NCBI GenBank assembly: GCA_028703305.1
Contig: JAQVNC010000001.1
Location: 56,791-120,790, forward strand
DNA: 64,000 nucleotides
Source: Patescibacteria group bacterium
Lineage (GTDB): Bacteria; Patescibacteriota; Patescibacteriia; Patescibacteriales; GWC2-42-12
Reading direction: 5' to 3'
Within the stretch, counting starts at the first letter, position 1. Every line of letters begins with the position of its first letter. Shown in pieces: positions 10,992 through 62,785 of this stretch. The notes beneath the pieces were generated by a model. The model did no database searches, was not told where the DNA came from, and saw only the letters and a program-made list of their open reading frames with translations. Made by a program: the position numbers and the translations under genes.

Positions 10992-11065
10992 CGGGACGGA
11001 CGGGACTCGGACCCGCGACCTCTGCCGTGACAGGGCAGCGCTCTAACCAACTGAGCTACCGTCCC
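10992..11065 (-). tRNA. tRNA-Asp (anticodon GTC)
   Basis: The reverse complement folds into a cloverleaf: gggacgg…ccgtccc acceptor, D arm gctc/gagc, anticodon loop cuGUCac, T arm gcggg-tccgagt-cccgt, discriminator G. Confidence 0.85.
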
Positions 11066-11171
11066 AATGATAAACAAAAAGTCTCTGGCGAGACTAAAAT
11101 TATACTAACAAAAAAAGAGAAGTTAGTCAATTCCGGAATTATTTGTAAAATTATTAAATCTCTGCTAAATT

Positions 11172-11300
11172 CAAGATAGTTTAGCAAGGTAATGGATTCC
11201 CGCTTTCCCGCCAGAGGCGGACAAGCGCGGGAATGACAAATAGATTCAAGGTAGTTTATTAAGGTAATGGATTGCGGCTCGTAGGCCGCAATGACAAAAT
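11172..11300 (+). repeat. Tandem pair of short hairpin repeats (aaggtaatggattcccgc…gcgggaatgacaa and aaggtaatggattgcggc…gccgcaatgacaa) immediately upstream of the ychF start
   Basis: About 70-bp unit duplicated (tcaagRtagtttaNNaaggtaatggatt…aatgacaaa); both units end in the AATGACAA motif shared with other copies. Confidence 0.65.
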
Positions 11301-11308
11301 AAAAAATT

Positions 11309-12367
11309 ATGTCTTTATCAATCGGAATTGTCGGTTTGCCTAATGTCGGCAAATCAACTTTATTTAACGCTTTAACCAAGAAAAAAGTTGAAGCCTCCAA
11401 TTATCCGTTCTGCACCATTGATCCGAATGTGGGCGTGGTTAAAGTTCCGGACGAAAGGCTGGAAAAATTGGCGACTATTTCCAAGCCTAAAAAAATCATA
11501 CCGGCCTATATTGAATTTGTTGATATCGCCGGCCTGGTTAAGGGCGCGTCCCAAGGCGAAGGGCTGGGCAACCAGTTTTTGTCCCATATTAGAGAGTGCG
11601 ACGCTATTTTAGAAGTGGTGCGCGAATTTAAGGACGATAATATTATTCATGTTAACGGTAAAATTGATCCGGAGGGCGATAAGGAAACCATAAACCTTGA
11701 ATTAATTTTTGCCGACTTGGCCACGGTTGAAAAAAGATTGGATAAAGTCGCACGAGAAGCTAAAAGCGGCAATAAAGAGATGATTGCCTTAAAAGCGCTT
11801 TTGGAAAAATTAAAAATACAGCTTGAGGCCGGCAAGGCTGCGCGCGAGCTTGAGTTAACAGATGATGAAAGAAAAGAAATAAAAAATTTGGGATTGTTAA
11901 CGGTTAAGCCGATAATTTACGTCCTAAACTCCGAGGATAACGCCACTGAAAAATTAGATTGGGGCAGCGAGGTTATTAAAATTAACGCCAAGCTGGAAGA
12001 AGAAATTGCCAGCCTGTCGGAAGATGAGCAGATAGAATATATTAAAGAATTAGGCTTAGACCAAAGCGGTTTGGATAAATTAATTAAAGCTTCATATAAT
12101 GTTTTAGGTCTAATTACTTTTTTAACTACCGGAGCTGACGAAACTCGGGCTTGGACAGTTAAACAAAGCTCTAAAGCGCCGCAAGCGGCCGGCGTCATCC
12201 ATACGGATTTTACCAAAGGCTTTATCCGCGCTGAAATTATTAACTGGCAGAAATTCATTGAAGCCGGATCCGAGGCTAAAGCGCGCGAGCTGGGTTGGAT
12301 TAAAACCGAGGGCAAAGAATATATAATACAAGACGGAGACGTTTGCAATTTTTTAATAAATAATTGA
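11309..12367 (+). CDS. ychF: Ribosome-binding ATPase YchF
   Basis: GIVGLPNVGKSTLFNALT G1 motif, DIAGLVKGASQGEGLGNQFL, and a TGS C-terminal domain. Confidence 0.9.
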   Translation: MSLSIGIVGLPNVGKSTLFNALTKKKVEASNYPFCTIDPNVGVVKVPDERLEKLATISKPKKIIPAYIEFVDIAGLVKGASQGEGLGNQFLSHIRECDAILEVVREFKDDNIIHVNGKIDPEGDKETINLELIFADLATVEKRLDKVAREAKSGNKEMIALKALLEKLKIQLEAGKAARELELTDDERKEIKNLGLLTVKPIIYVLNSEDNATEKLDWGSEVIKINAKLEEEIASLSEDEQIEYIKELGLDQSGLDKLIKASYNVLGLITFLTTGADETRAWTVKQSSKAPQAAGVIHTDFTKGFIRAEIINWQKFIEAGSEAKARELGWIKTEGKEYIIQDGDVCNFLINN

Positions 12368-12390
12368 CAAAGTTTATAAAATTGCTATAT
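12363..12390 (+). promoter_or_regulatory. Near-consensus sigma70 promoter (TTGACA-16-TATATT) overlapping the ychF stop codon
   Basis: tTGAca contains the ychF TGA stop; spacer aagtttataaaattgc; -10 tatatt. Confidence 0.6.
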
Positions 12391-12396
12391 TAAAGG

Positions 12397-12645
12397 GCTA
12401 CATCACAGTTGCTCTTTTTTAATACGCGGGATTCATTGGCCTGCCGGGGCTAATGATGAAATTTTTGCTTAAGCCTTTAAAACCAGTCCGCTGGCCGAGG
12501 CCACCTCCTCCTACCGCAACGGACGGGGTTTTCGCAAAAGTTTGATTTCCCGCTTTAGGGGTTGGTCTGCTGTGCGGCGGAGTTGCCAACGACTGCTCCG
12601 CTTGACTAATGCATGCCACGGACCGCCCCTTTTTCTCTTTTTAAA
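12397..12645 (+). ncRNA. Candidate GC-rich structured ncRNA of unknown class, about 250 nt, bounded by a promoter and a terminator
   Basis: About 55% GC in a roughly 35% GC genome with no credible ORF in any frame; long-range stem aggggttggtc/gaccgcccct followed by ttttctcttttt; an internal gcggag…ctccgc hairpin. Confidence 0.4.
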
Positions 12646-12883
12646 AAGCATCAATTAAGATGCTTCTTTTTTTATAAAATTTGCCCAGATTATTTAATCT
12701 AAAATTTCATATTCCCAGCCCGGTTGCCAACCGGTCGCCAGGTCATTCTCATTATCAATCGTCGTGCCATGCACGAAGTAGGTTATTTTTACGGGCATAA
12801 TTAAGAGTAGATATTTTATTTAGTACAAAGTGTAAAAGAATTAGGGTATAAATGCTCCGGAGACAAGGCTTATTATTACATGA

Positions 12884-14137
12884 CTATGCGGCAAAAGCAA
12901 ACAATTGTTGCTGAATGCACACAGGCGTTTCCTCTTTTTCTTCTTCAATTTCACCGTTAAGCATTTTAATTATCATGTCGCCGATGTGATATCCGAGGTT
13001 TGCAGGTACAGCATTTCCTATTTGTTTATATTGTTGCGAAACGGATCCTGAAAATTTCCAACTATCTGGAAATGTTTGAATTCGCGCGTATTCGCGCACA
13101 GACAAAGGGCGCGTTTCATCTGGATGGCAACGTTCAGTTTGTTTTTGAGCCGGACTGCAAGTTAAGGTTAAAGATGGTTCGTCCCATGACAATCGTCTCG
13201 CCATGCCAGTTTTGCCGCCACCCATAAAATAACTTGCTCCCATGTATTCTTTTTGAAGATTTTCCGGAAGATCTCTCCAGTACCCGCCAGGAGGAATTAG
13301 TTCTAATATTTTTTTCTTTTTTTCGGGATATTCTTGGCCTTCAGATTTTGGGCATCTGTTGAATGCTTCACGCAGGGGAACGATATAATCTTTTTCCCTT
13401 GGAAATGAAATTGGAATATTTAAATCTTTTCTAACGCCAATAATTATAAGACGTTCTCTTTTTTGCGGAACATCCAAATATTGTGATCGTAGAATTTTAT
13501 ATTTAACTCGGTATCCAATTTCTTCTAAAACAGACACCATCGTTTTAATCGTTCTGCCATCGTTATGGTTTAGTAATCCTTTGACATTTTCTCCAATTGC
13601 AATTTTAGGCCTAACTTCCTTAACACATCTCGCGAACTCAAAAAATAATGTACCCCGTATATCTTCAAACCCCATTTTTCGACCAGCTTGCGAAAAAGTC
13701 TGGCAAGGGAAACCTCCTTGAACAATATCAGCCTGCCCTTTAAAAAATTTAAGCTCTCTTATATCTTTTTCCACAACATTCCAATTTGGCTTGTTGATTC
13801 GAAGTGTTTCACAGGCGTGTTTGTCATACTCGTTTAATAACACATGTTCAATTCCCGCGTTTTCCATCCCTAAAGCAGTGCCCCCTGCGCCAGCAAATAA
13901 CTCGATTGCTGTGTAGTTGGACATTCGATTATTCTTTAAAATTTTAAATTTGCTTTTTTTATCCCCATGAGTTTTATTTTGTATTCTCTTTATTTCTTCT
14001 AAACTAAATATACGATCGTTTTTTCCATCTCTAAAAGATTTAATTAATCCTTTTTTATCCCACCTCCTGATAGTATCAATTGAAATACCTAATTGACGAG
14101 CCGCCTCTCCAGCGGTTATGAATTGATTTTTTTTCAT
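12884..14137 (-). CDS. DNA (cytosine-5) methyltransferase with an N-terminal MerR/excisionase-type HTH domain
   Basis: N-terminal FITAGEAARQLGISIDTIRRWDKKGLI (HTH); ELFAGAGG (motif I); GFPCQTFSQAGRKMG (PC motif IV); ENV; and a C-terminal QIGNAVP. Confidence 0.85.
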   Translation of the reverse strand: MKKNQFITAGEAARQLGISIDTIRRWDKKGLIKSFRDGKNDRIFSLEEIKRIQNKTHGDKKSKFKILKNNRMSNYTAIELFAGAGGTALGMENAGIEHVLLNEYDKHACETLRINKPNWNVVEKDIRELKFFKGQADIVQGGFPCQTFSQAGRKMGFEDIRGTLFFEFARCVKEVRPKIAIGENVKGLLNHNDGRTIKTMVSVLEEIGYRVKYKILRSQYLDVPQKRERLIIIGVRKDLNIPISFPREKDYIVPLREAFNRCPKSEGQEYPEKKKKILELIPPGGYWRDLPENLQKEYMGASYFMGGGKTGMARRLSWDEPSLTLTCSPAQKQTERCHPDETRPLSVREYARIQTFPDSWKFSGSVSQQYKQIGNAVPANLGYHIGDMIIKMLNGEIEEEKEETPVCIQQQLFAFAA

Positions 14138-14198
14138 AAAAAATGATAGATTAATAATCTATCATAATTATATCAAATAACCTTTGCCTAGGCAATGG

Positions 14199-14906
14199 TT
14201 ATTTAGTGAGAAAAGCTAATTTAAATAATTCAAAATATTTCTTAGCTTCTTCTTTGCTTAATTTAAACTTGTATTTGTCTACTAAAATATGAGATAGTGC
14301 TTCAAATAGTTCCTGCAGGGCATATTTTCGTCCGGTTGCAAGAGCATAAAAGCTTATGCCATCAATTATTCTGATATTTTTTGCGCTCGGTCTTCTTTTT
14401 TGAGTCTTATTGTCTGATGGGGTAAAAGGTTTGTCGTATATGTTTTTTGCTTGAGGTATTATTTCTACATAATATCCAGTAAAGCGATGAAATTTTTCTG
14501 ATTTAAGTTTTGATTTTATAGCATCATATATTTCAACCTTATGATTTCCTTTTGTTGTATTGAATTTATTTTTTACTTCCGCGATAATTTTCATTTTATC
14601 ATTTGCAACATCCAAACCTCCACCAACGCCGAGATTTTTCCAGCCAGGGATTGCACCCAATACTTCTTGATGAAAATCACCAATGGCATTTTGCATTGTT
14701 TTTTGTGATTGTCTGGCCTTTTCTTGTTTTATCCATTCTTTATATGTTATCGCATGGGTGACCCCATGAAACAAGGCTGAAAAAGGATCAATAACATTTT
14801 TATGGAGATTACTACTGGCCTCACGTTCGGTCGTTTTGATTATTCTGACCACTTTTCCAACGGCAGAAATTAGGTTTTTGTCGGATATAAATTTTAGATA
14901 TGGCAT
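14199..14906 (-). CDS. Putative type II restriction endonuclease partnering the C5-MTase (tentatively Eco47II-like)
   Basis: Adjacent and co-directional with the C5-MTase, 235 aa, no housekeeping similarity; the family assignment is from memory only. Confidence 0.45.
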   Translation of the reverse strand: MPYLKFISDKNLISAVGKVVRIIKTTEREASSNLHKNVIDPFSALFHGVTHAITYKEWIKQEKARQSQKTMQNAIGDFHQEVLGAIPGWKNLGVGGGLDVANDKMKIIAEVKNKFNTTKGNHKVEIYDAIKSKLKSEKFHRFTGYYVEIIPQAKNIYDKPFTPSDNKTQKRRPSAKNIRIIDGISFYALATGRKYALQELFEALSHILVDKYKFKLSKEEAKKYFELFKLAFLTK

Positions 14907-14927
14907 AAATATTTTTAATAATTAATT

Positions 14928-15110
14928 AAATCGTTTTCGCGGCGGAGCGGTTTTGCTCAACGTCGGCGCATATAAGAAGAAATGCGAAACGAGTTGAGGT
15001 GGTACAATTTGTGCGGAGCACTACCACCGAAAACGAGTGTAGCATTTTTTGCGTGAACGAGCCATGCGAGTGAGCCTTATATGCGCTGTTATATGCTGTG
15101 CCAGCCTTAT
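14928..15110. repeat. GC-rich repeat A: the 3' half of the 66-bp core plus a variable hairpin module (gcgcatataag…cttatatgcgc)
   Basis: cgcggcggagcggttttgctcaacg matches the right half of the cores at 15731 and 18911; long-range cgttttcg/cgaaaacg pairing. Confidence 0.6.
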
Positions 15111-15111
15111 A

Positions 15112-15570
15112 CTAAAGCTGTTTTTTCATTAGTGTCATTGAACCTACATCACCAACAATTTCCTTTATTTTTTTATATCCTAACTTCTTATAAAAATTTA
15201 CTGCAAAGGGGCTTGCTTTAAGGGAGACGGAGCGAAAACCCCATTTTTTTGCGTCACTTTCTAAACGATTCATGAGCTCTCTACCAATGCCCTTACCATG
15301 ATAATTCGGATTAACAAACACAGCACGACCCCAATTATCGTTCAGTGTTAAATCTAAAGTAGCAGTACCAACAACTTTTCCATTTAATTCAGCAACATAG
15401 ATATTGAATCGTTTAGAATCCTTAATAAACTGACCAGGTGTAAAATGCTTGTAGAGGATCACAGTTTGCTTTTTAGTTATATCTTTACTGTTAATTAAAA
15501 CGATACATTTTCTGCTTAAATAAGAAAGTTTTCGCTCGTCTCCCTTTTTAAATTTTCGAATTTTAATCAT
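15112..15570 (-). CDS. GNAT-family N-acetyltransferase
   Basis: Acetyl-CoA motif VGTATL…RAVFVNPNYHGKGIGRELM; start taken at MIKIRKF (15570), because the ORF-track N-extension runs into the GC repeat. Confidence 0.75.
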   Translation of the reverse strand: MIKIRKFKKGDERKLSYLSRKCIVLINSKDITKKQTVILYKHFTPGQFIKDSKRFNIYVAELNGKVVGTATLDLTLNDNWGRAVFVNPNYHGKGIGRELMNRLESDAKKWGFRSVSLKASPFAVNFYKKLGYKKIKEIVGDVGSMTLMKKQL

Positions 15571-15574
15571 AAGT

Positions 15575-15900
15575 TTAAGGCTGACATGGCATATAACGCG
15601 CGCGGGATATGCGATGCGCCTGGAGGCCAGTACTCTGGCCGCAAGGCGTTTCGCATATCCCGAGTTGGGCGATGCCGCTCCGCCTTGCCCGTAGGGCGGG
15701 CGAGCGGCGAGTCCAACGAGGGCCTGCCCGCGCGCGTTGAGCAAAACCGCGAGCACCGAGCGTTAGCGAGGGCGGAGCGGTTTTGCTCAACGTATCGGCA
15801 TATCTGATGTTTGCCGTAGCGTAGCGGAGGCAAATATGGGTGGAGGCTTTTGTATAAAAGCCGTAACCAGATATGCCGTGTTATGTGATGTGCATGTTTT
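15575..15900. repeat. GC-rich repeat B: hairpin cgggatatgcga…tcgcatatcccg, then the 66-bp core (15731..15796), then a variable hairpin module (ggcatatctg…cagatatgcc)
   Basis: The core cgcgcGTTGAGCaaaaccgc…gcggttttGCTCAACgtatc is identical to 18911..18976. Confidence 0.7.
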
Positions 15901-16016
15901 ACTTTAATCCCGATAGCAATCGGGATTGCTCTAAAAAAGAATTTTAATTTTGTTTTTTTTGTTTTGAAAAAATGAAAGAGGGGTTAGGGGTGAATTCCAT
16001 TTTTCAAAACTCCTTA

Positions 16017-16754
16017 TTATTTACTACGTTGTTTTTTATAAGCCTCAATAATTTTATTTGCCAATTCATTAGATTTAGATTCGTATTTTACAAATTCATC
16101 AATATTATCTTGTTTAACATGTAGCTGCCCTTCTCCGGTGTTGCCTCTGTGCTGTCCTTTTGAATAGTATTTATTTTGCTCAACTTCTTTTGAAGCAAGT
16201 ACCCAATATTTAATCGTGTCTCGCCAAACTCCAACCCAAACAAAAACATCGCAACATTTAGGCTTTACTTGTTGAAAATTCATATCAAATGGTAGTCCTG
16301 ATTCCCATGCTAACGCTTTAACATAAAGTGCTTCTTGACTGTTAAAATCGACAGCTCTTGAGGCTTTAACTTCTATTTTAATCATTTCTCCATTCGTTAG
16401 CGGATATAAAAAGTCGTATTCTCCAGAATAATTTTCTTCAAGTTTCTTTGTTGGCTTAATAAGTTCAGGAGCAAGCTCTTTTAGGTGTCCCTGTGCCCAT
16501 TGTTCTCCAAACCCACGTGGTGCAGAAATTTCAAATATGTAGAGATACATATTTCTAGCAATATACTCATCTCTAATTTCTAGATAATCGTCTAAAGTGA
16601 TTTTATCTAGACCTAACAAAGTTGAAATTATGTATTCATATTCATTAAATGGATACACCGAAATTAAATTTTCGAGCCTTGTTTTAAGTCCGTCGCCCTC
16701 TTGTTTTGAAAGAGAGTCTATCATCTTTTCGAGTTTTTTCTTTAGAATTTCCAT
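16017..16754 (-). CDS. Hypothetical protein with a PD-(D/E)xK-like motif; putative restriction endonuclease of the second R-M module
   Basis: …EYDFLYPLTNGEMIKIEVKASRA… (D…ExK arrangement); 4 bp downstream of and co-directional with the N6A-MTase. Confidence 0.4.
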   Translation of the reverse strand: MEILKKKLEKMIDSLSKQEGDGLKTRLENLISVYPFNEYEYIISTLLGLDKITLDDYLEIRDEYIARNMYLYIFEISAPRGFGEQWAQGHLKELAPELIKPTKKLEENYSGEYDFLYPLTNGEMIKIEVKASRAVDFNSQEALYVKALAWESGLPFDMNFQQVKPKCCDVFVWVGVWRDTIKYWVLASKEVEQNKYYSKGQHRGNTGEGQLHVKQDNIDEFVKYESKSNELANKIIEAYKKQRSK

Positions 16755-16758
16755 AGGA

Positions 16759-18723
16759 TTATTTAATGTTAAAATTTTTAATATGTTTTTTTTCTTTTTC
16801 TGTAAGACTAAATTGATCCATTATATAATTATCCAATTCTTCATATTTGTCTTTTTTGGCTATTATATCATCTACTAATTTCATAATTATTTCAAAAATT
16901 TCTTTATTCCATAAAGGTAAAGGCATTTGTTCAATATGATTTCTCAAAACTTTTATACTCGAAAACTTTTTTTGAAAAATAAACTGATAAGGAGATGAGT
17001 TTAATAAAGCAACGATAACCTTAATTGGATAGTTTGGGATTTTGGGAATTACAATATTTGCACTATTTAAAGTTAATTTTTGCTTGTCATCATATGCAAA
17101 TATCAAATACTTTGAAATGAAGCGATAAATTAATTTTTCTTTAGCTCTATATTTTTCGATAGGAGCAACTTGTTGAAATTTTTCGGGAGTAAATTGTATG
17201 TAATTTGACGGATTACTTAAAATAAATTTATCAACTTCTTTTCCTTTATATATTTCTTCAAGTCCTTCTTTTTTTTCGCTCGTTATATATGCTTTGTTAT
17301 TGCCAGTAACAATACCAAGTGCCCAATCTGCTTGATTTGATAATGTTGTGTGCTGAATATCAAAAATTTTATCAATTATGCTTGTATCAAAGCCATTTGC
17401 ATGTATGTCAAAAACAAAGTCAATATTATTTTTCCACTTAGATTGTTCAATGAAATATTTTTCATTTTCTTTAAAAATTTCAATCTGTGTGTTTTCTATT
17501 CTGTTTTTTTCTAAATCAAGTCTGATAACTGGAGTAAATACATTTTTAAACACACGATTCAAACAAGAGACTTTTTTTATATGAGTATTTTTCAAAATAA
17601 TTTCTCGTATATCTTTGTGTGTTTTTACATTCAAAATTGATTCAGGCAAGATAAATGAAATAAATCCTCCGTCTTTTAGCAAATCAATACTCTTTTTTAA
17701 GAAATAAGAGAAAGATTCTAAAGATGTTATTTCAGGATAGGTTGTTTTTAATTTTTCTGTATCTAATTTTGAAAAATGAACACCCCAAGGTGGATTTGTC
17801 GCAATTACATCAAAATCTCTAATATTCTCGTCATTCAAACTAAATAAATCATAACTTCCAATTTCAAAAAGTGTATTTTTACAAACAATATTTGGTGCGA
17901 AGTTTTGATCTTTATATTTCATCAAGATATTTAATCTTGCGATTCTCACAGCTATTTCGTCTATATCAACTCCGTAAATATTTTTTGGATTTTCAACTGT
18001 ATCAGCAAATGCTAATAAAAATTGACCTGTTCCACAACAAGGGTCTAAAACTTTAGAATCTGTTTTTACATAATCCTTAATTATTTCATTAACGATTGTT
18101 TCTGGCGTATAATAAGAGCCTCCTTGTGATTTTTCCCCCTCAAGTAATAGTGATTGATAAAAAAATCCCAAAGTATCACGTTGTCTGGGGATAGAACAAT
18201 TTAACAAAAAGGAATATTCATCTTTAACATTATCAACACCAATATCTGATAACCATGCTTTGATTTCTTCTGAGATTTGTTTGTTGGTGGAAGATAAATT
18301 TTGTGTGATTAAATTTTGAATTGTAATATTTGAAAATATTTTTTCTTTTTGAAGTAAGTTAAGACTTAATAATAATAAAGAAAGTGAAGTATTAATATTA
18401 TTTTTTGAAACAAAGTCTAAAATTTTATTTATGTCATCAATACTAATCCCATCTTTTAAATATTCATCTGGAATAAAAGTCCTCTCTGCTTTAGATTTAT
18501 TTGCCCTTCCATTTAATTTGTCAAAATCACCATTTACTATGTTAGATTTGATATTTTCAATATCGGATAAACTAAAAGAATATCGTCTTTCATTGTTATA
18601 TGTTTTTAGATGACCGCATTTAACCCAATTTCTTACGGTCGCAGTTGAAATACCTAAAAAAGACGACGCTTTTTCAATGTCTATGATATTTTTTGCCTTA
18701 TTTGTAATAGTTAATTCCTGCAT
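16759..18723 (-). CDS. Gamma-class N6-adenine DNA methyltransferase with an N-terminal HTH and a C-terminal target-recognition domain
   Basis: N-terminal ASSFLGISTATVRNWVKCGHL (HTH); VLDPCCGTGQFLL (motif I) precedes DVIATNPPWG (motif IV); start taken at MQELTIT (18723), so the ORF-track N-extension is untranslated leader. Confidence 0.8.
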   Translation of the reverse strand: MQELTITNKAKNIIDIEKASSFLGISTATVRNWVKCGHLKTYNNERRYSFSLSDIENIKSNIVNGDFDKLNGRANKSKAERTFIPDEYLKDGISIDDINKILDFVSKNNINTSLSLLLLSLNLLQKEKIFSNITIQNLITQNLSSTNKQISEEIKAWLSDIGVDNVKDEYSFLLNCSIPRQRDTLGFFYQSLLLEGEKSQGGSYYTPETIVNEIIKDYVKTDSKVLDPCCGTGQFLLAFADTVENPKNIYGVDIDEIAVRIARLNILMKYKDQNFAPNIVCKNTLFEIGSYDLFSLNDENIRDFDVIATNPPWGVHFSKLDTEKLKTTYPEITSLESFSYFLKKSIDLLKDGGFISFILPESILNVKTHKDIREIILKNTHIKKVSCLNRVFKNVFTPVIRLDLEKNRIENTQIEIFKENEKYFIEQSKWKNNIDFVFDIHANGFDTSIIDKIFDIQHTTLSNQADWALGIVTGNNKAYITSEKKEGLEEIYKGKEVDKFILSNPSNYIQFTPEKFQQVAPIEKYRAKEKLIYRFISKYLIFAYDDKQKLTLNSANIVIPKIPNYPIKVIVALLNSSPYQFIFQKKFSSIKVLRNHIEQMPLPLWNKEIFEIIMKLVDDIIAKKDKYEELDNYIMDQFSLTEKEKKHIKNFNIK

Positions 18724-18771
18724 GGTAATTTGTCTTTTATAGTGTAATTGTATCTTGTTTTCAAAAATATT

Positions 18772-18806
18772 AAAATCGTTTTCGGAGCGATAGCGGAGAA
18801 AACACC
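18772..18806. repeat. Degenerate partial copy (D) of the GC-rich repeat in the 5' leader of the N6A-MTase
   Basis: aaaatcgttttcggagcgatagcggagaaaacacc versus repeat A aaatcgttttcgcggcggagcgg. Confidence 0.45.
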
Positions 18807-18879
18807 TTATACCCCCCTCTTTAAAAATTAAAAAAATCAAATTCCTTGTTTCTTAAAGCCCACCAAAAACATTTAAAAA

Positions 18880-19140
18880 AACAAATTTTTCAAAAATATG
18901 TCGCCTAACGCGCGCGTTGAGCAAAACCGCGAGCACCGAGCGTTAGCGAGGGCGGAGCGGTTTTGCTCAACGTATCCGAATATACGAAGTTCTAATTTTT
19001 TTCTGTGTTATAATTGTGCGGACACGCCAACGCAGAAAAAAATTAGAATTTAGGCGGAGATAAAATTCAACTCATTAATGTAATGTAAAAAGGAATTTTA
19101 TCGGAGCCGTATATTCGGTGTTATCGGATGTAAAATTTAT
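18880..19140. repeat. GC-rich repeat C: GCCTAAC-gcgcgc then the 66-bp core (18911..18976) then a variable module (cgaatatacg…cgtatattcg, with a nested ttctaatttttttctg…cagaaaaaaattagaa hairpin)
   Basis: 66-bp perfect identity with 15731..15796; the flanking stems covary around a central ATAT. Confidence 0.7.
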
Positions 19141-19152
19141 TAGCGGGCTTAT

Positions 19153-19482
19153 TTAAACGAAAATTTGAATAATATAATAATAAATGACACTTAAAACAAG
19201 TATTAAACTTGTTGCTTTGATAAATTGATTTTTTATTAATATCGAAAATTTGATTAAAAAGAACGTTAATGCCAAAAATATTATTAGCGGATAAATGCTC
19301 ATTATAACAAAAGCAGTGCCTCCAAAAACGGCTTGAATGCTTTCGTTGAAATCAGAAGGGTAGCCGTTTATTTTTGGAATTATAAATAAGTAACATGCTG
19401 ATAAAAATAATGAGCTTACAAAAAGAAGCGGAATTAATAAAAAATCAAATTTTTGGGGTCTTAAGATTTGTAGTGGTTTCAT
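19153..19482 (-). CDS. Hypothetical small membrane protein (3 TM segments)
   Basis: Hydrophobic profile only. Confidence 0.45.
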   Translation of the reverse strand: MKPLQILRPQKFDFLLIPLLFVSSLFLSACYLFIIPKINGYPSDFNESIQAVFGGTAFVIMSIYPLIIFLALTFFLIKFSILIKNQFIKATSLILVLSVIYYYIIQIFV

Positions 19483-19597: not shown

Positions 19598-19634
19598 TTT
19601 TTTCTGGATTCCCGCCTGTGCGGGAATGACAAGC
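19598..19634 (+). repeat. Short hairpin repeat ttttctggattcccgcctgtgcgggaatgacaa (S2)
   Basis: Same consensus as the copies at 20845, 50640, 11187 and 62333. Confidence 0.65.
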
Positions 19635-19638
19635 GGGA

Positions 19639-20814
19639 TTATTTTTCCAATATAACTATCTCCCGCCAAACCTTTTGCCCGTCGCGGCCGTAGATAATAC
19701 TGTCGCGGTTGGTTATTTTTAGAAAAATATTTTTTTTCAGGTTGGCCGGTATAGAGCCAATAATTTTATAACCATCTATGTTAGGGTAGATAAAAGTTGA
19801 AAGTTTTCCCTGAAACACGGGCCAAATCATCACGATTTTACCACCGGGTTTTAAAATTTTTTTAAATTCTCTTAAACTTTCGGAATATAATTTTTCCAGT
19901 TCAGTTTTTATTTTATTAATCGGCGTATTGCCTCTTTGCGGGCCTAAATACGGTTCGGTAATAATAAAATCTATTGAATTCGGCGCAATGTGTTTTGAAA
20001 TTTGCGCGGCGTCAGAATGAAAAAGCTTAAAATTTAAAGCTTCAAGTTTAAAATTAGATTGAACCCAGGCGAGATTATTTTTTGTGTCTCCGAGAGCCCT
20101 GTCGGATATATCAGAACCGGTTATTTTTTTATAGCCCATTAAAGCCGCTTCGGTAATAATCGTGCCAGAACCGCAAAATGGATCTAAAATAGCCGCGCCT
20201 AAATCCGCGCCAGCTAAATTTATCATAATCTGCGCCAGCTTGGGCGGCAACATGCCGGAATAATCGTCGCGCGCCGGCCGGCCGTAATCTCTAAATGACA
20301 ATTCTTTAAACGGCTGGACGGCCAGGGTTTTTCCTAAAAGTAATTTTTTATTAAATTCAATAATAACGATTTCCACGCCTTTGTCCGTAACTAATTTGTT
20401 CTGCTCCACCACTACGCTTGATAAAGTCGGTTCCCGGCTTATAACCCAGCGGCTATTTATGCCTGACTCTTTAAGTAATTTTTTAAATTCCATGCCTAAA
20501 ACTTTTAAGTTAATTTTACTTTTACCATAATAAGAAATGCCAAAATTAAATTTTGAATCACTTTTTTCCGGTTTGGCGAAGCTGGTAGCTGATTTTAAAA
20601 TGTCTTTAACAGCAATTGAAGCTGGCTCGCCATGAATTAGGCCGAATTTAACGGTGCCGCCGATTTTTTTAATAATATTAGCCTTTATTTCTTCGTTAGT
20701 TTCTAAAATCGCGATATTTTTTTGAATTAAAGAAAATTGGCCATGATTAAAAACGGCCGTTAGTTCGGCTAAGGATAAAGTCGGGTTGGTGCCCAGAATG
20801 AAGAAATAACGCAT
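19639..20814 (-). CDS. THUMP-domain RNA methyltransferase (RlmL/Trm-G10-like, UPF0020)
   Basis: N-terminal THUMP-like region plus DPFCGSGTIITEAALMGYKKITGSDIS…, a SAM-binding methylase core. Confidence 0.7.
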   Translation of the reverse strand: MRYFFILGTNPTLSLAELTAVFNHGQFSLIQKNIAILETNEEIKANIIKKIGGTVKFGLIHGEPASIAVKDILKSATSFAKPEKSDSKFNFGISYYGKSKINLKVLGMEFKKLLKESGINSRWVISREPTLSSVVVEQNKLVTDKGVEIVIIEFNKKLLLGKTLAVQPFKELSFRDYGRPARDDYSGMLPPKLAQIMINLAGADLGAAILDPFCGSGTIITEAALMGYKKITGSDISDRALGDTKNNLAWVQSNFKLEALNFKLFHSDAAQISKHIAPNSIDFIITEPYLGPQRGNTPINKIKTELEKLYSESLREFKKILKPGGKIVMIWPVFQGKLSTFIYPNIDGYKIIGSIPANLKKNIFLKITNRDSIIYGRDGQKVWREIVILEK

Positions 20815-20844: not shown

Positions 20845-20877
20845 TTTTCTGGATTCCCGCTTTCGCGGGAATGACGA
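20845..20877 (+). repeat. Short hairpin repeat ttttctggattcccgctttcgcgggaatgacgaa (S3)
   Basis: Consensus family member; lies in the THUMP-MTase upstream region. Confidence 0.6.
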
Positions 20878-21114
20878 AGGTAATTTAATTAAACCTTAGC
20901 ATAAGAATATGGCTCTTGCAATTTATTTTTGGCTGTGGTAATGTATGAATACAATTTAATTTAACCTTTCCCATATTTAACTGCTAGTGCTGTTAAATAG
21001 CCTGGCGCAAAGCCAGACTAAAGGTATTCTCAAGTAATCCCATGATTGGCAATTCAAGCCGCGAGAATATCTTGGGATTTTTGTTAATAAGGCAAAAATT
21101 AACCAATTAAAATT

Positions 21115-21606
21115 ATGTCCAGAACAAAATCCAGCGAAATTCCCCATTACGAATTGCTTTACTTAATCTCCAATAAGTTCAGCGAAGATGAGGTAAAACC
21201 AATCGTGGAAAAAGTAAATTCTTTGATTGTAAGCAATCAGGGTAAAATAACCTTGGCCGAAGATTTAGGCAAAAAGAGGTTGGCTTATCCGATAAAAGGC
21301 TTTCGTTACGGCTATTATGATTTAGCCGAGTTTGATATGCCGGGAGAAAATTTAATCAATCTTGATCGCGCTTTGCGCATGATGAATGAAGTTTTAAGGC
21401 ATCAAATCGTTACCAAAATCGTAAAAACCGCCGAGCAGATAGCCGAAGACAAAAAAATCGCCGAGAAAATCGCGGCTCGCAACGACAAAGCGGAAAAAGA
21501 AGAAGAGAAAAAAGAAAAAGCCAAAGAAGCCGATAAAGAAAAAGTTGATTTAAAAGATTTGGACGAAAAGCTAGATAAAATTTTAGAAACCAACGATTTG
21601 CTATAA
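21115..21606 (+). CDS. rpsF: 30S ribosomal protein S6 with a Lys/Glu-rich C-terminal tail
   Basis: HYELLYLISNKFSEDEVKPIVEKV… is an S6-like N-terminus; part of the conserved rpsF-ssb-rpsR gene order. Confidence 0.85.
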   Translation: MSRTKSSEIPHYELLYLISNKFSEDEVKPIVEKVNSLIVSNQGKITLAEDLGKKRLAYPIKGFRYGYYDLAEFDMPGENLINLDRALRMMNEVLRHQIVTKIVKTAEQIAEDKKIAEKIAARNDKAEKEEEKKEKAKEADKEKVDLKDLDEKLDKILETNDLL

Positions 21607-50629: not shown

Positions 50630-50700
50630 GTTATTGCGAAAAATTTCTGGATTCCCGCCTGCGCGGGAATGACAAATTGGAGATTGGTCGCAATGACATT
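50630..50700 (+). repeat. Short hairpin repeat S4 (tttctggattcccgcctgcgcgggaatgacaa) nested inside a minimal gttattgcgaa…gtcgcaatgaca frame; it supplies ATGs upstream of gdh
   Basis: Shares the consensus of the other S copies; the flanks resemble the termini of the L family. Confidence 0.65.
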
Positions 50701-62074: not shown

Positions 62075-62785
62075 ATGGATAAACAAACGCAGAAAAATTT
62101 ATTAGAGCTGGTAAAAAAAAATTACGAGGAAATCGCGGAGAATTTTGATATAACCAGAAAAAAACAGTTATGGCCGGAGCTTTTGAAATTGGCCGAAATG
62201 GTGAAAGATGGAGATAGAATTTTAGATGTTGGCTGTGGCAACGGTAGATTGATAGAAGCGTTTGGCGAAAAGAAAATAGAATATCTGGGAGTGGATAGTA
62301 GTGAGAAACTGGTTGAAACGGCGAAGAAGAATCTGGGCTCCCGCCTGCGCGGGCATGACAAATTGGCGGTCGGTGATATTTTAAAATTGGATAAATTGCC
62401 GGAGAAAGATTTTAATTATGTTTTTTGCATTGCCGTCTTGCACCATCTGCCGGGCGAAGATTTAAGGCTGGAAGCTTTAAAGCAGATGAAAAATAAAATA
62501 AATAGTAACGGCAAAATTATAATCACGGTTTGGAATTTATGGAGCCGGTGGAAATTTATAAAATTGATTTTTAAGTACGGTTGGTTTAAGTCAGCCGGCA
62601 AAAACCAGATGGACTTCGGCGATATTTTGTTTGATTGGAAAAATAATAAGGGCGAGCGGATTAGCCGGCGGTATTACCATGCCTTTACCAAAAATGAATT
62701 AAAAAAACTGTCTGTCCGCGCGGGGTTTAAAGCGGAGAAAATATATAAAGATAAATATAATTATTACGCGATTTTAACCAAATAG
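62075..62785 (+). CDS. Class I SAM-dependent methyltransferase carrying an in-frame repeat-derived insertion
   Basis: LDVGCGNGRL motif I; residues …LGSRLRGHDKLAVGD… are encoded by an S-type repeat. Confidence 0.65.
   Translation: MDKQTQKNLLELVKKNYEEIAENFDITRKKQLWPELLKLAEMVKDGDRILDVGCGNGRLIEAFGEKKIEYLGVDSSEKLVETAKKNLGSRLRGHDKLAVGDILKLDKLPEKDFNYVFCIAVLHHLPGEDLRLEALKQMKNKINSNGKIIITVWNLWSRWKFIKLIFKYGWFKSAGKNQMDFGDILFDWKNNKGERISRRYYHAFTKNELKKLSVRAGFKAEKIYKDKYNYYAILTK

Follow-up and report, generated by a model that had tools for sequence, protein, structure and literature searches.

The 64,000-nucleotide (nt) stretch of contig JAQVNC010000001.1 from a bacterium of the Patescibacteria group, referred to here as the window, carries a GC-rich element directly downstream of the ychF gene that is very probably a genuine structured RNA gene, separate from the restriction-modification island nearby. 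The element is interpreted as a candidate small non-coding RNA (sRNA) gene of about 275 nt, located at roughly 12398-12673 on the + strand, and this interpretation, taken as a whole with the mechanism proposed for it below, is modestly favored. Judged by its sequence, the candidate has the attributes of a stand-alone sRNA gene, namely a predicted promoter, an intrinsic terminator, no conserved reading frame and a covarying structure. It most likely constitutes a new family of sRNA in Patescibacteria, narrowly distributed and fast-evolving, that falls outside every family in Rfam 15.

Evidence for a structured RNA comes from folding and from the pattern of substitutions among homologues. The + strand RNA of positions 12398-12645 folds with a minimum free energy (MFE) of -87.1 kcal/mol (z = -3.32), a value matched by none of 200 dinucleotide shuffles, and its reverse complement gives z = -0.12. 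Among the six homologues described below, the + strand folds better than the - strand in every case, with z-scores from -3.4 to -6.5 in five of the six. RNAalifold recovers a conserved fold for the first domain of the RNA in the window copy and in those at loci L173 and L085, with 43 pairs, 11 of which show compensatory double changes. When pairs were counted on the model-based alignment of these three sequences, 96.0% of cells were paired, versus 44-54% when the partners were slid by 1-3 columns, and 11 pairs were changed on both sides, versus 0-3 in the slid controls; none of 500 shuffles reached the observed value. G-U pairs account for 16 of the 126 paired cells and would be A-C mismatches on the opposite strand, thus only the + strand fits. 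In the four other copies, single helices are supported by direct reading only.

The gene upstream of the element, ychF (11309-12367, + strand, in the list of open reading frames, ORFs), is the neighbor kept at every copy. Its product is 100% identical to P0001, a protein named YchF by NCBI that contains the PF01926 (MMR_HSR1) and PF06071 (YchF-GTPase_C) domains, and the closest named relatives by YchF are Candidatus Falkowbacteria. YchF is a redox-regulated, ribosome-binding ATPase. An earlier inspection of this DNA from its letters alone (the sequence-only reading) had described a near-perfect TTGACA-16-TATATT promoter overlapping the ychF stop, and the promoter scan agrees. The predicted sigma-70-type promoter, TTGACA-16-(TG)TATATT, spans 12364-12391 on the + strand, matches 11 of 12 consensus positions and is the top-scoring site across 11000-14200. 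The ychF stop codon TGA (12365-12367) lies inside the -35 box TTGACA (12364-12369), and the -10 box TATATT (12386-12391) follows a 16-nt spacer with the TG of an extended -10 just upstream. By direct reading, TTGACA-N16/17-TATATT is kept in six copies, those of the window, L173, L081, L085, L169 and L174, the last with TATAGT. It is not present after ychF in L083, L171 and L175, the RNA-less relatives whose sequence was read; on this comparison, the putative promoter travels together with the RNA. The sole copy without the shared arrangement is that of L082, in which an ORF of 115 amino acids (aa) is inserted between the promoter region and the RNA. The genes downstream of the element, according to the ORF list and a Pfam scan of the neighbors, are all on the - strand. 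As these genes are convergent and no + strand gene follows, a cis-leader was rejected, as it had been in the sequence-only reading.

Directly 3' of the -10 box lies a hairpin, P0 (AAAGGGC...GCUCUUU followed by a U run; 12392-12420, + strand, from the MFE fold), with its 5' arm at 12392-12398. Direct reading shows that its stem co-varies among copies, with GGGC/GCUC, GGGCAAU/AUUGUCC (L081) and GGACUG/CGGUCC (L169). From the geometry of the promoter, transcription would start 6-9 nt after the -10 box, at 12396-12400. Because this start would fall within the 5' arm of P0, the hairpin is probably the intrinsic terminator of ychF rather than a part of the RNA, the alternative being a 5' stem-loop of the RNA. 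By the same geometry, P0 and its U run would terminate ychF transcripts, and transcripts from the internal promoter, having no left arm of P0, would be unable to form it and would read through into the RNA. The resulting molecule would comprise an AU-rich 5' tail, a three-way domain (P1, P2 and P3, the last with a CUCCU tip), a 74-nt rod (P4) and a terminator held in common with the convergent gene, at which transcription would end.

Domain 1 (12426-12553, + strand), delimited by RNAalifold and pair counting, is closed by stem P1 (GCGGGA/UCCCGC) around hairpin P2 and the long arm P3. The nine pairs of P2 (CAUUGGCCU-GCCG-GGGCUAAUG, 12434-12455, + strand) are 100% paired, with two compensatory and four one-sided changes. 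At the tip of P3 is the pyrimidine tract CCACCUCCUCCUACC (12501-12515, + strand), whose CUCCU core resembles an anti-Shine-Dalgarno sequence and is the proposed seed or recognition site. Domain 2, or P4 (12557-12630, + strand), is a 74-nt rod-like hairpin flanked by the motifs CUG and CCA; helices GGGG/CCCC and GGUCUG/CGGACC form its base, and its tip, GCGGCGGAG/CUCCGC, is variable. Its base follows the pattern GGUCUG/CRGACC across copies and co-varies, reading GGUCUG/CAGACC in L169, GGCUG/CAGUC in L174 and GGACCGG/CCGGUCC in L081. Analogous rods fold in the window, L173, L169 and L174 copies, and that of L085 is shortened. L169, L082 and L174 lack the inner closing strand, and in these copies a single outer GGGG/CCCC helix appears to enclose both domains. 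Additionally, P3 and P4 each contain a similar short motif, G(C/U)CUG-CUG ... CA-C(G/A)G(G/A)C.

At the 3' end, the sequence-only reading had proposed a long-range stem, a T-rich tract and a second, AT-rich hairpin terminator, and all three were recovered. The stem, AGGGGTTGGTC...GACCGCCCCT (12557-12630), is present in the MFE fold and is followed by TTTTTCTCTTTTT. The U-rich tract after P4, UUUUUCUCUUUU (12631-12642, + strand, by direct reading), could act as a first terminator in the window copy only; it is a clean U run there and not in L173, L085 or L169. The common intrinsic terminator identified by the terminator scan, AAAAAGCAUC-AAUUAA-GAUGCUUCUUUUUUU (12643-12673, + strand; hairpin 12646-12665 plus T run), is kept in all seven copies with compensatory changes (GCAUC/GAUGC, GCACC/GGUGC, GCGUC/GGCGC), its consensus being AAAAAGCAYC...GRUGCUUU plus a U run. 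Since this second terminator alone is common to all copies, the unit runs to about 12673, and with an A run on its 5' side and a U run on its 3' side, the terminator probably stops the convergent - strand gene too. The limits first proposed for the unit, 12363-12645, thus describe a promoter-to-terminator unit correctly but fall short of the common terminator at the 3' end, while the first 26 nt after the -10 box, a hairpin and U run, more likely belong to ychF as its terminator. Similarly, the estimate of about 55% GC over some 250 nt applies to the core (56.6%, 12426-12630), with 51.2% over 12398-12645 and 39.3% in the whole window. The UGAUGA box (12452-12457) and GCGGAG...CTCCGC hairpin that had drawn attention are both present in the window copy, but the former is not conserved, as L173 reads AAUGACAAAG at that place. 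A kink-turn or C/D-box RNA was likewise rejected, with UGAUGA unconserved and no tandem G-A on the opposite strand.

To trace the element in other genomes, the contigs of eleven distinct relatives, obtained by a YchF protein search (proteins 85-92% identical to that of the window), were compared at the position downstream of ychF. The element occurs at the same place, directly after ychF, in six of these eleven relatives with YchF 87-92% identical, at L173, L085 (= L086), L169 (= L170), L082, L174 and L081. By blastn, the window and L173 copies are 75% identical over 281 nt, and L173 is also linked to L085 and to L169. Furthermore, among 186 loci, the motif GCCTGCTG-N-ACGGGCG is found only in L173, L085/L086 and L169/L170. 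The copies in L082, L174 and L081 were assigned by position, promoter or leader, terminator, and the loop and P4 motifs. Where the element is lacking, the next gene begins after 45-140 nt (L167/L168, L171, L172 and L175) or after about 270 nt of unrelated AT-rich sequence with a REP-like insert (L083). Nothing similar was found after ychF in the GTDB species representatives closest by YchF (66-73% identical), and a metagenome scan via YchF, in which the matches listed were all at most 71% identical, gained no further copies. The element evolves fast, with 75% RNA identity where YchF is 92% identical. The RNA is most likely restricted to a narrow group of Falkowbacteria-like Patescibacteria and inherited at the locus after ychF.

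A pyrimidine tract with a CUCCU core is found at a hairpin tip, at the corresponding place, in six copies: CCACCUCCUCCUA in the window, CUCUCCUUA in L173, CCCUCCUUU in L085, CCACCUCCUUU in L169, ACUCCUA in L082 and GACCUCCUCCC in L174. The loop 5-mers are predicted to be unpaired with a mean probability of 0.2-0.6 in the window copy, compared to 0.4-0.9 in the remaining copies. By analogy with known sRNAs, the leading though tentative mechanism is that of a trans-acting riboregulator, in which this loop would pair with AGGAG-like, purine-rich sites carried by a small number of target RNAs. In L082, the loop could in principle also pair in cis, with the AAGGAGG of the inserted ORF. That ORF (L082 5153-5500) has a strong AAGGAGG ribosome-binding site and a faint match to DUF7736 only. 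As it is inserted between the promoter and the RNA, the RNA in L082 would be part of a co-transcribed 3' untranslated region (UTR).

Several observations weigh against this interpretation of the RNA. Shine-Dalgarno motifs (GGAG, GAGG or AGGA within 22 nt upstream of the start) precede 4 of the 56 ORFs of the window, the leaders being AT-rich; the organism therefore appears to initiate translation largely without Shine-Dalgarno pairing, and with such sites this scarce, it is doubtful that the RNA acts by classic occlusion of ribosome-binding sites. A duplex scan of the 56 start regions of the window against the loop gave a best value of -25.2 kcal/mol, compared to -24.6 +/- 2.9 for shuffled loops, and no extended complement occurs within the 64-kb window. 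Part of the CUCCU tract is itself predicted to be paired in the window and L173 copies. The element is absent in about half of equally close relatives (L083, L167/L168, L171, L172 and L175), thus the RNA is dispensable or has moved. With respect to the structure, the whole family numbers seven copies. Only three could be aligned adequately for counting pairs with tools, and these three, which make up the covariation set, are also the source of the structure itself. The covariance model of domain 1, R1, recovers its three training sequences only, with no second copy in the window. The copies in L169, L082, L174 and L081 escape it, also when filters are disabled or the search is confined to small regions, and the membership of these four is less secure for that reason. 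The L082 copy folds no better than shuffles to significance (z = -1.4). MAFFT and RNAalifold applied to all copies, to P4 and to P3 gave misaligned, uninformative results.

Given that the element is GC-rich and structured, with a strong predicted promoter in a reduced genome, and that none of 6S, SRP, RNase P and tmRNA was found elsewhere in the 64-kb window, a diverged housekeeping RNA of one of these families was considered, and it is very improbable. Searches of the whole window against Rfam 15 at gathering thresholds returned seven tRNAs only. For the 551 nt of 12250-12800, matches at E<=10 were at chance level (E>=0.38; 10-25 bits versus thresholds of 41-141), the six homologous loci gave nothing at the element at E<=1, and ARAGORN found no tmRNA in the window, all of which bears out the sequence-only reading, where no likeness to these four RNAs had been seen. 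The three-way domain and rod are also unlike the 6S rod with its central bubble, and the element evolves fast and is absent in half of the close relatives. Equally hard to credit is a small-protein gene or decayed coding remnant. ORFs of 30, 38, 47 and 66 aa do exist in the window copy, counting both strands, yet no frame is conserved in L173, L085 and L169, and among ORFs of at least 20 aa on both strands of the seven copies, none is shared, in line with the earlier view that the region has no plausible coding frame. In L173, for example, the 30-aa frame is interrupted by a stop codon once 11 codons have been read; L085 lacks its start, and in L169 the segment is deleted. Moreover, the substitutions keep base pairs, not the reading frame. 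Least credible is a part of the mobile island, whether as a terminal cassette, an attC-like recombination site or an island-encoded regulator. The element does lie about 250 nt from the restriction-modification island and is GC-rich like the 83-nt repeats of the island, which had led the sequence-only reading to propose a terminal cassette or regulatory RNA of the island. This proposal fails on the homologues after ychF in the island-free L173, L169 and L085, and on the His_Phos_1 relic (described below) that separates the RNA from the island; these two observations indicate that the RNA predates the island. In addition, no repeat family includes 12392-12673, none is held in common with the 83-nt repeats, and blastn searches of phages and plasmids gave no match to the element. 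A viral-contig pattern scan returned 10 matches, all chance and without blastn similarity. An attC site was rejected in the absence of core sites, as were a retron, omega RNA or CRISPR-type RNA, with no reverse transcriptase, TnpB or Cas among the immediate neighbors in the Pfam scan. A full-text literature search found no description of this RNA.

Two further alternatives accept the structure and differ on its role. The element could be a long structured 3' UTR and double-terminator buffer where ychF and His_Phos_1 converge, in which case the supposed promoter would be a look-alike arising from AT-rich sequence. The convergent gene pair and the bidirectional terminator at the end would suit this, as would the position of the L082 RNA downstream of an inserted ORF; furthermore, promoter-like sites are common in this AT-rich DNA (17 found in the scan versus 7.3 expected). 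However, a hairpin and U run (12392-12420) already stand between ychF and the element, and relatives manage with 45-140 nt between the same genes. Because the promoter is conserved where the RNA is present and absent where it is absent, the RNA-less intergenic regions are short, and compensatory changes extend across about 40 pairs, which would be unexpected in a mere spacer, this explanation is unlikely. Somewhat less so, though still rather doubtful, is a protein- or ribosome-directed decoy, in which the loop (...CACCUCCU(U/C)...) would mimic the 3' tail of 16S rRNA and titrate a candidate factor that recognizes the tail or the small subunit, such as Era, bS21/bS18/bS6 or YchF itself. The window loop CCACCUCCUCCUA and the L169 loop, read as CCACCUCCUUUCCC in this comparison, resemble the 16S 3' end, GAUCACCUCCUUU. 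In an organism largely without Shine-Dalgarno sites, an anti-Shine-Dalgarno look-alike has few mRNA partners, the gene always adjoins that of a ribosome-binding ATPase, and the motif repeated in P3 and P4 would suit a repeated protein site. On the other hand, only CUCCU is left of the likeness to the 16S tail in L173 (CUCUCCUUA) and L082 (ACUCCUA), the pairing upstream of the loop differs from 16S helix 45, and adjacency to ychF may reflect common descent only; the 16S gene of the organism lies outside the window. The specific form in which an exposed ...CACCUCCU... loop, in a largely Shine-Dalgarno-free bacterium, captures a factor that reads or sequesters the anti-Shine-Dalgarno, or YchF, is decidedly improbable. 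If true, such a decoy would adjust how translation starts, for example by shifting the balance between leaderless or unstructured mRNAs and those few led by Shine-Dalgarno sites.

The surroundings of the candidate sRNA gene can be reconstructed by comparison with relatives. In L173, L169 and L085, ychF and the RNA are followed by His_Phos_1 and further genes in convergent orientation, up to a UPF0020/N6_N4 methyltransferase, and then by rpsF on the + strand. As read from these sequences, the putative ancestral order is ychF, the RNA and a convergent His_Phos_1. In the window, His_Phos_1 is reduced to a relic, a 34-aa ORF (12694-12798, - strand) between the RNA and the island, which retains the first 27 and last 12 residues of a 183-aa protein. 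BLASTP against the L173 protein shows identity at 23 of 27 N-terminal and 10 of 12 C-terminal residues. The relic is an in-frame internal deletion with its junction at a repeated GW(Q/L)PG motif, and the full 183-aa gene is found in L173. The inserted defense-type island (12884-19482, - strand) lies between the relic and the methyltransferase/rpsF block. It encodes a C5 DNA methylase with an N-terminal, MerR-type helix-turn-helix fusion, an Eco47II-family endonuclease, a GNAT acetyltransferase, a 693-aa type IIG enzyme (N6_Mtase, Eco57I, TaqI_C) and unknown proteins of 245 aa and 109 aa. No integrase family was matched among the seven island and flanking ORFs scanned against Pfam. Beyond the island are the conserved methyltransferase (19639-20814) and rpsF (21115-21606, + strand).

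Repeats are found both in the island and around it. The 83-nt GC-rich repeats between island genes, which are the "cassette spacers" of the sequence-only reading, occur as two copies with 94% identity, at 15729-15811 and 18909-18991, and as a partial one at 14941-14979. They carry the palindrome GTTGAGCAAAACCGC...GCGGTTTTGCTCAAC, and their GTT...AAC boxes are in the order opposite to that of canonical attC sites (RYYYAAC...GTTRRRY). Hairpin repeats of family D1, GGATTCCCGC...GCGGGAATGACAA, are intergenic and occur at 11186-11300, 19603-19645, 20848-20890, 50646-50688 and 62332-62374, two of them just upstream of ychF. A second family, GTCATTGCGAGC...GAAGCAATCTCAC (D4, D7-D9 and D15), is found at about 22122, 23186, 37771, 51956, 57608 and 58940. 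Both hairpin families look like REP- or MITE-like elements.

Among relatives with YchF 87-92% identical (L081-L086 and L167-L176), the locus after ychF is a hotspot of gene turnover. The genes found there include a cation ATPase, an NNMT-type methyltransferase, a sigma-70 factor, DUF7670, MFS fragments, a NUDIX-DHH protein and an AAA_14 ATPase. The 3' end of ychF itself carries an insert of about 40 nt in L174 (4036-4125) and L171 (4054-4150), GAGACGCTTGTCC[G/A]CCGAAGCTTTAGCG[G/T]AGGCGGAG, with a similar one in L083 (5060-5110). A copy of roughly the final 27 nt of ychF (GATGTTTGTAATTTTTTGAT...TAA) stands on either side of this insert, which has the look of a small mobile element, one that causes duplication of its target and provides a new C-terminus.

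Patescibacteria are tiny-genome, mostly uncultured symbionts with few examples of regulatory RNAs, and to our knowledge, almost none have been described in the Candidate Phyla Radiation. A promoter-to-terminator candidate with covariation support can be sought in groundwater metatranscriptomes. Additionally, it presents two testable oddities, a promoter apparently nested in the stop codon and terminator of the upstream gene, and an anti-Shine-Dalgarno-like loop in an organism that scarcely uses Shine-Dalgarno sites. Its significance is bounded by the narrow clade and by the loss in half of the close relatives, and the candidate would enlarge a well-known class by one family without introducing a new principle.

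The known RNAs most similar to the candidate are the sRNAs of Gram-positive bacteria with C/U-rich loops, such as RsaE/RoxS, the RNAIII hairpins and FsrA, which pair with G-rich, Shine-Dalgarno-like sequences. Like these, the element would be a stand-alone gene with a sigma-70/sigma-A promoter, an intrinsic terminator and no ORF, and would adopt a stable multi-hairpin fold that exposes pyrimidine-rich loops. It differs in having no match to Rfam in sequence or structure, in its confinement to a narrow group of Patescibacteria and in its host, which hardly uses Shine-Dalgarno sites; it is also longer than RsaE, at about 275 nt versus about 100 nt. Resemblance to the 3' tail of 16S rRNA, the anti-Shine-Dalgarno that ends ...GAUCACCUCCUUU, extends to CCACCUCCU(C/U) at the P3 tip in the window and L169, and to CUCCU in all six loop-bearing copies. 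Unlike the tail, the version in the element lies in a hairpin loop of an unrelated fold, with unconserved flanks, and is not 3'-terminal. With 6S RNA (RF00013), the element has in common a structured RNA of about 200-300 nt, a strong promoter of its own and no same-strand neighbor to regulate. However, it gives no cmscan match to that family at E<=10, is patchily present among close relatives, and combines a three-way junction with a separate rod, whereas 6S RNA forms one rod that opens into a large bubble at its center. Integron attC sites and cassette arrays are also GC-rich imperfect hairpins between genes, here near an island, but the element has no R''/L''-L'/R' core sites and no copies elsewhere in the array. 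In contrast to such sites, it has its own predicted promoter and terminator and is kept in relatives that are free of the island.

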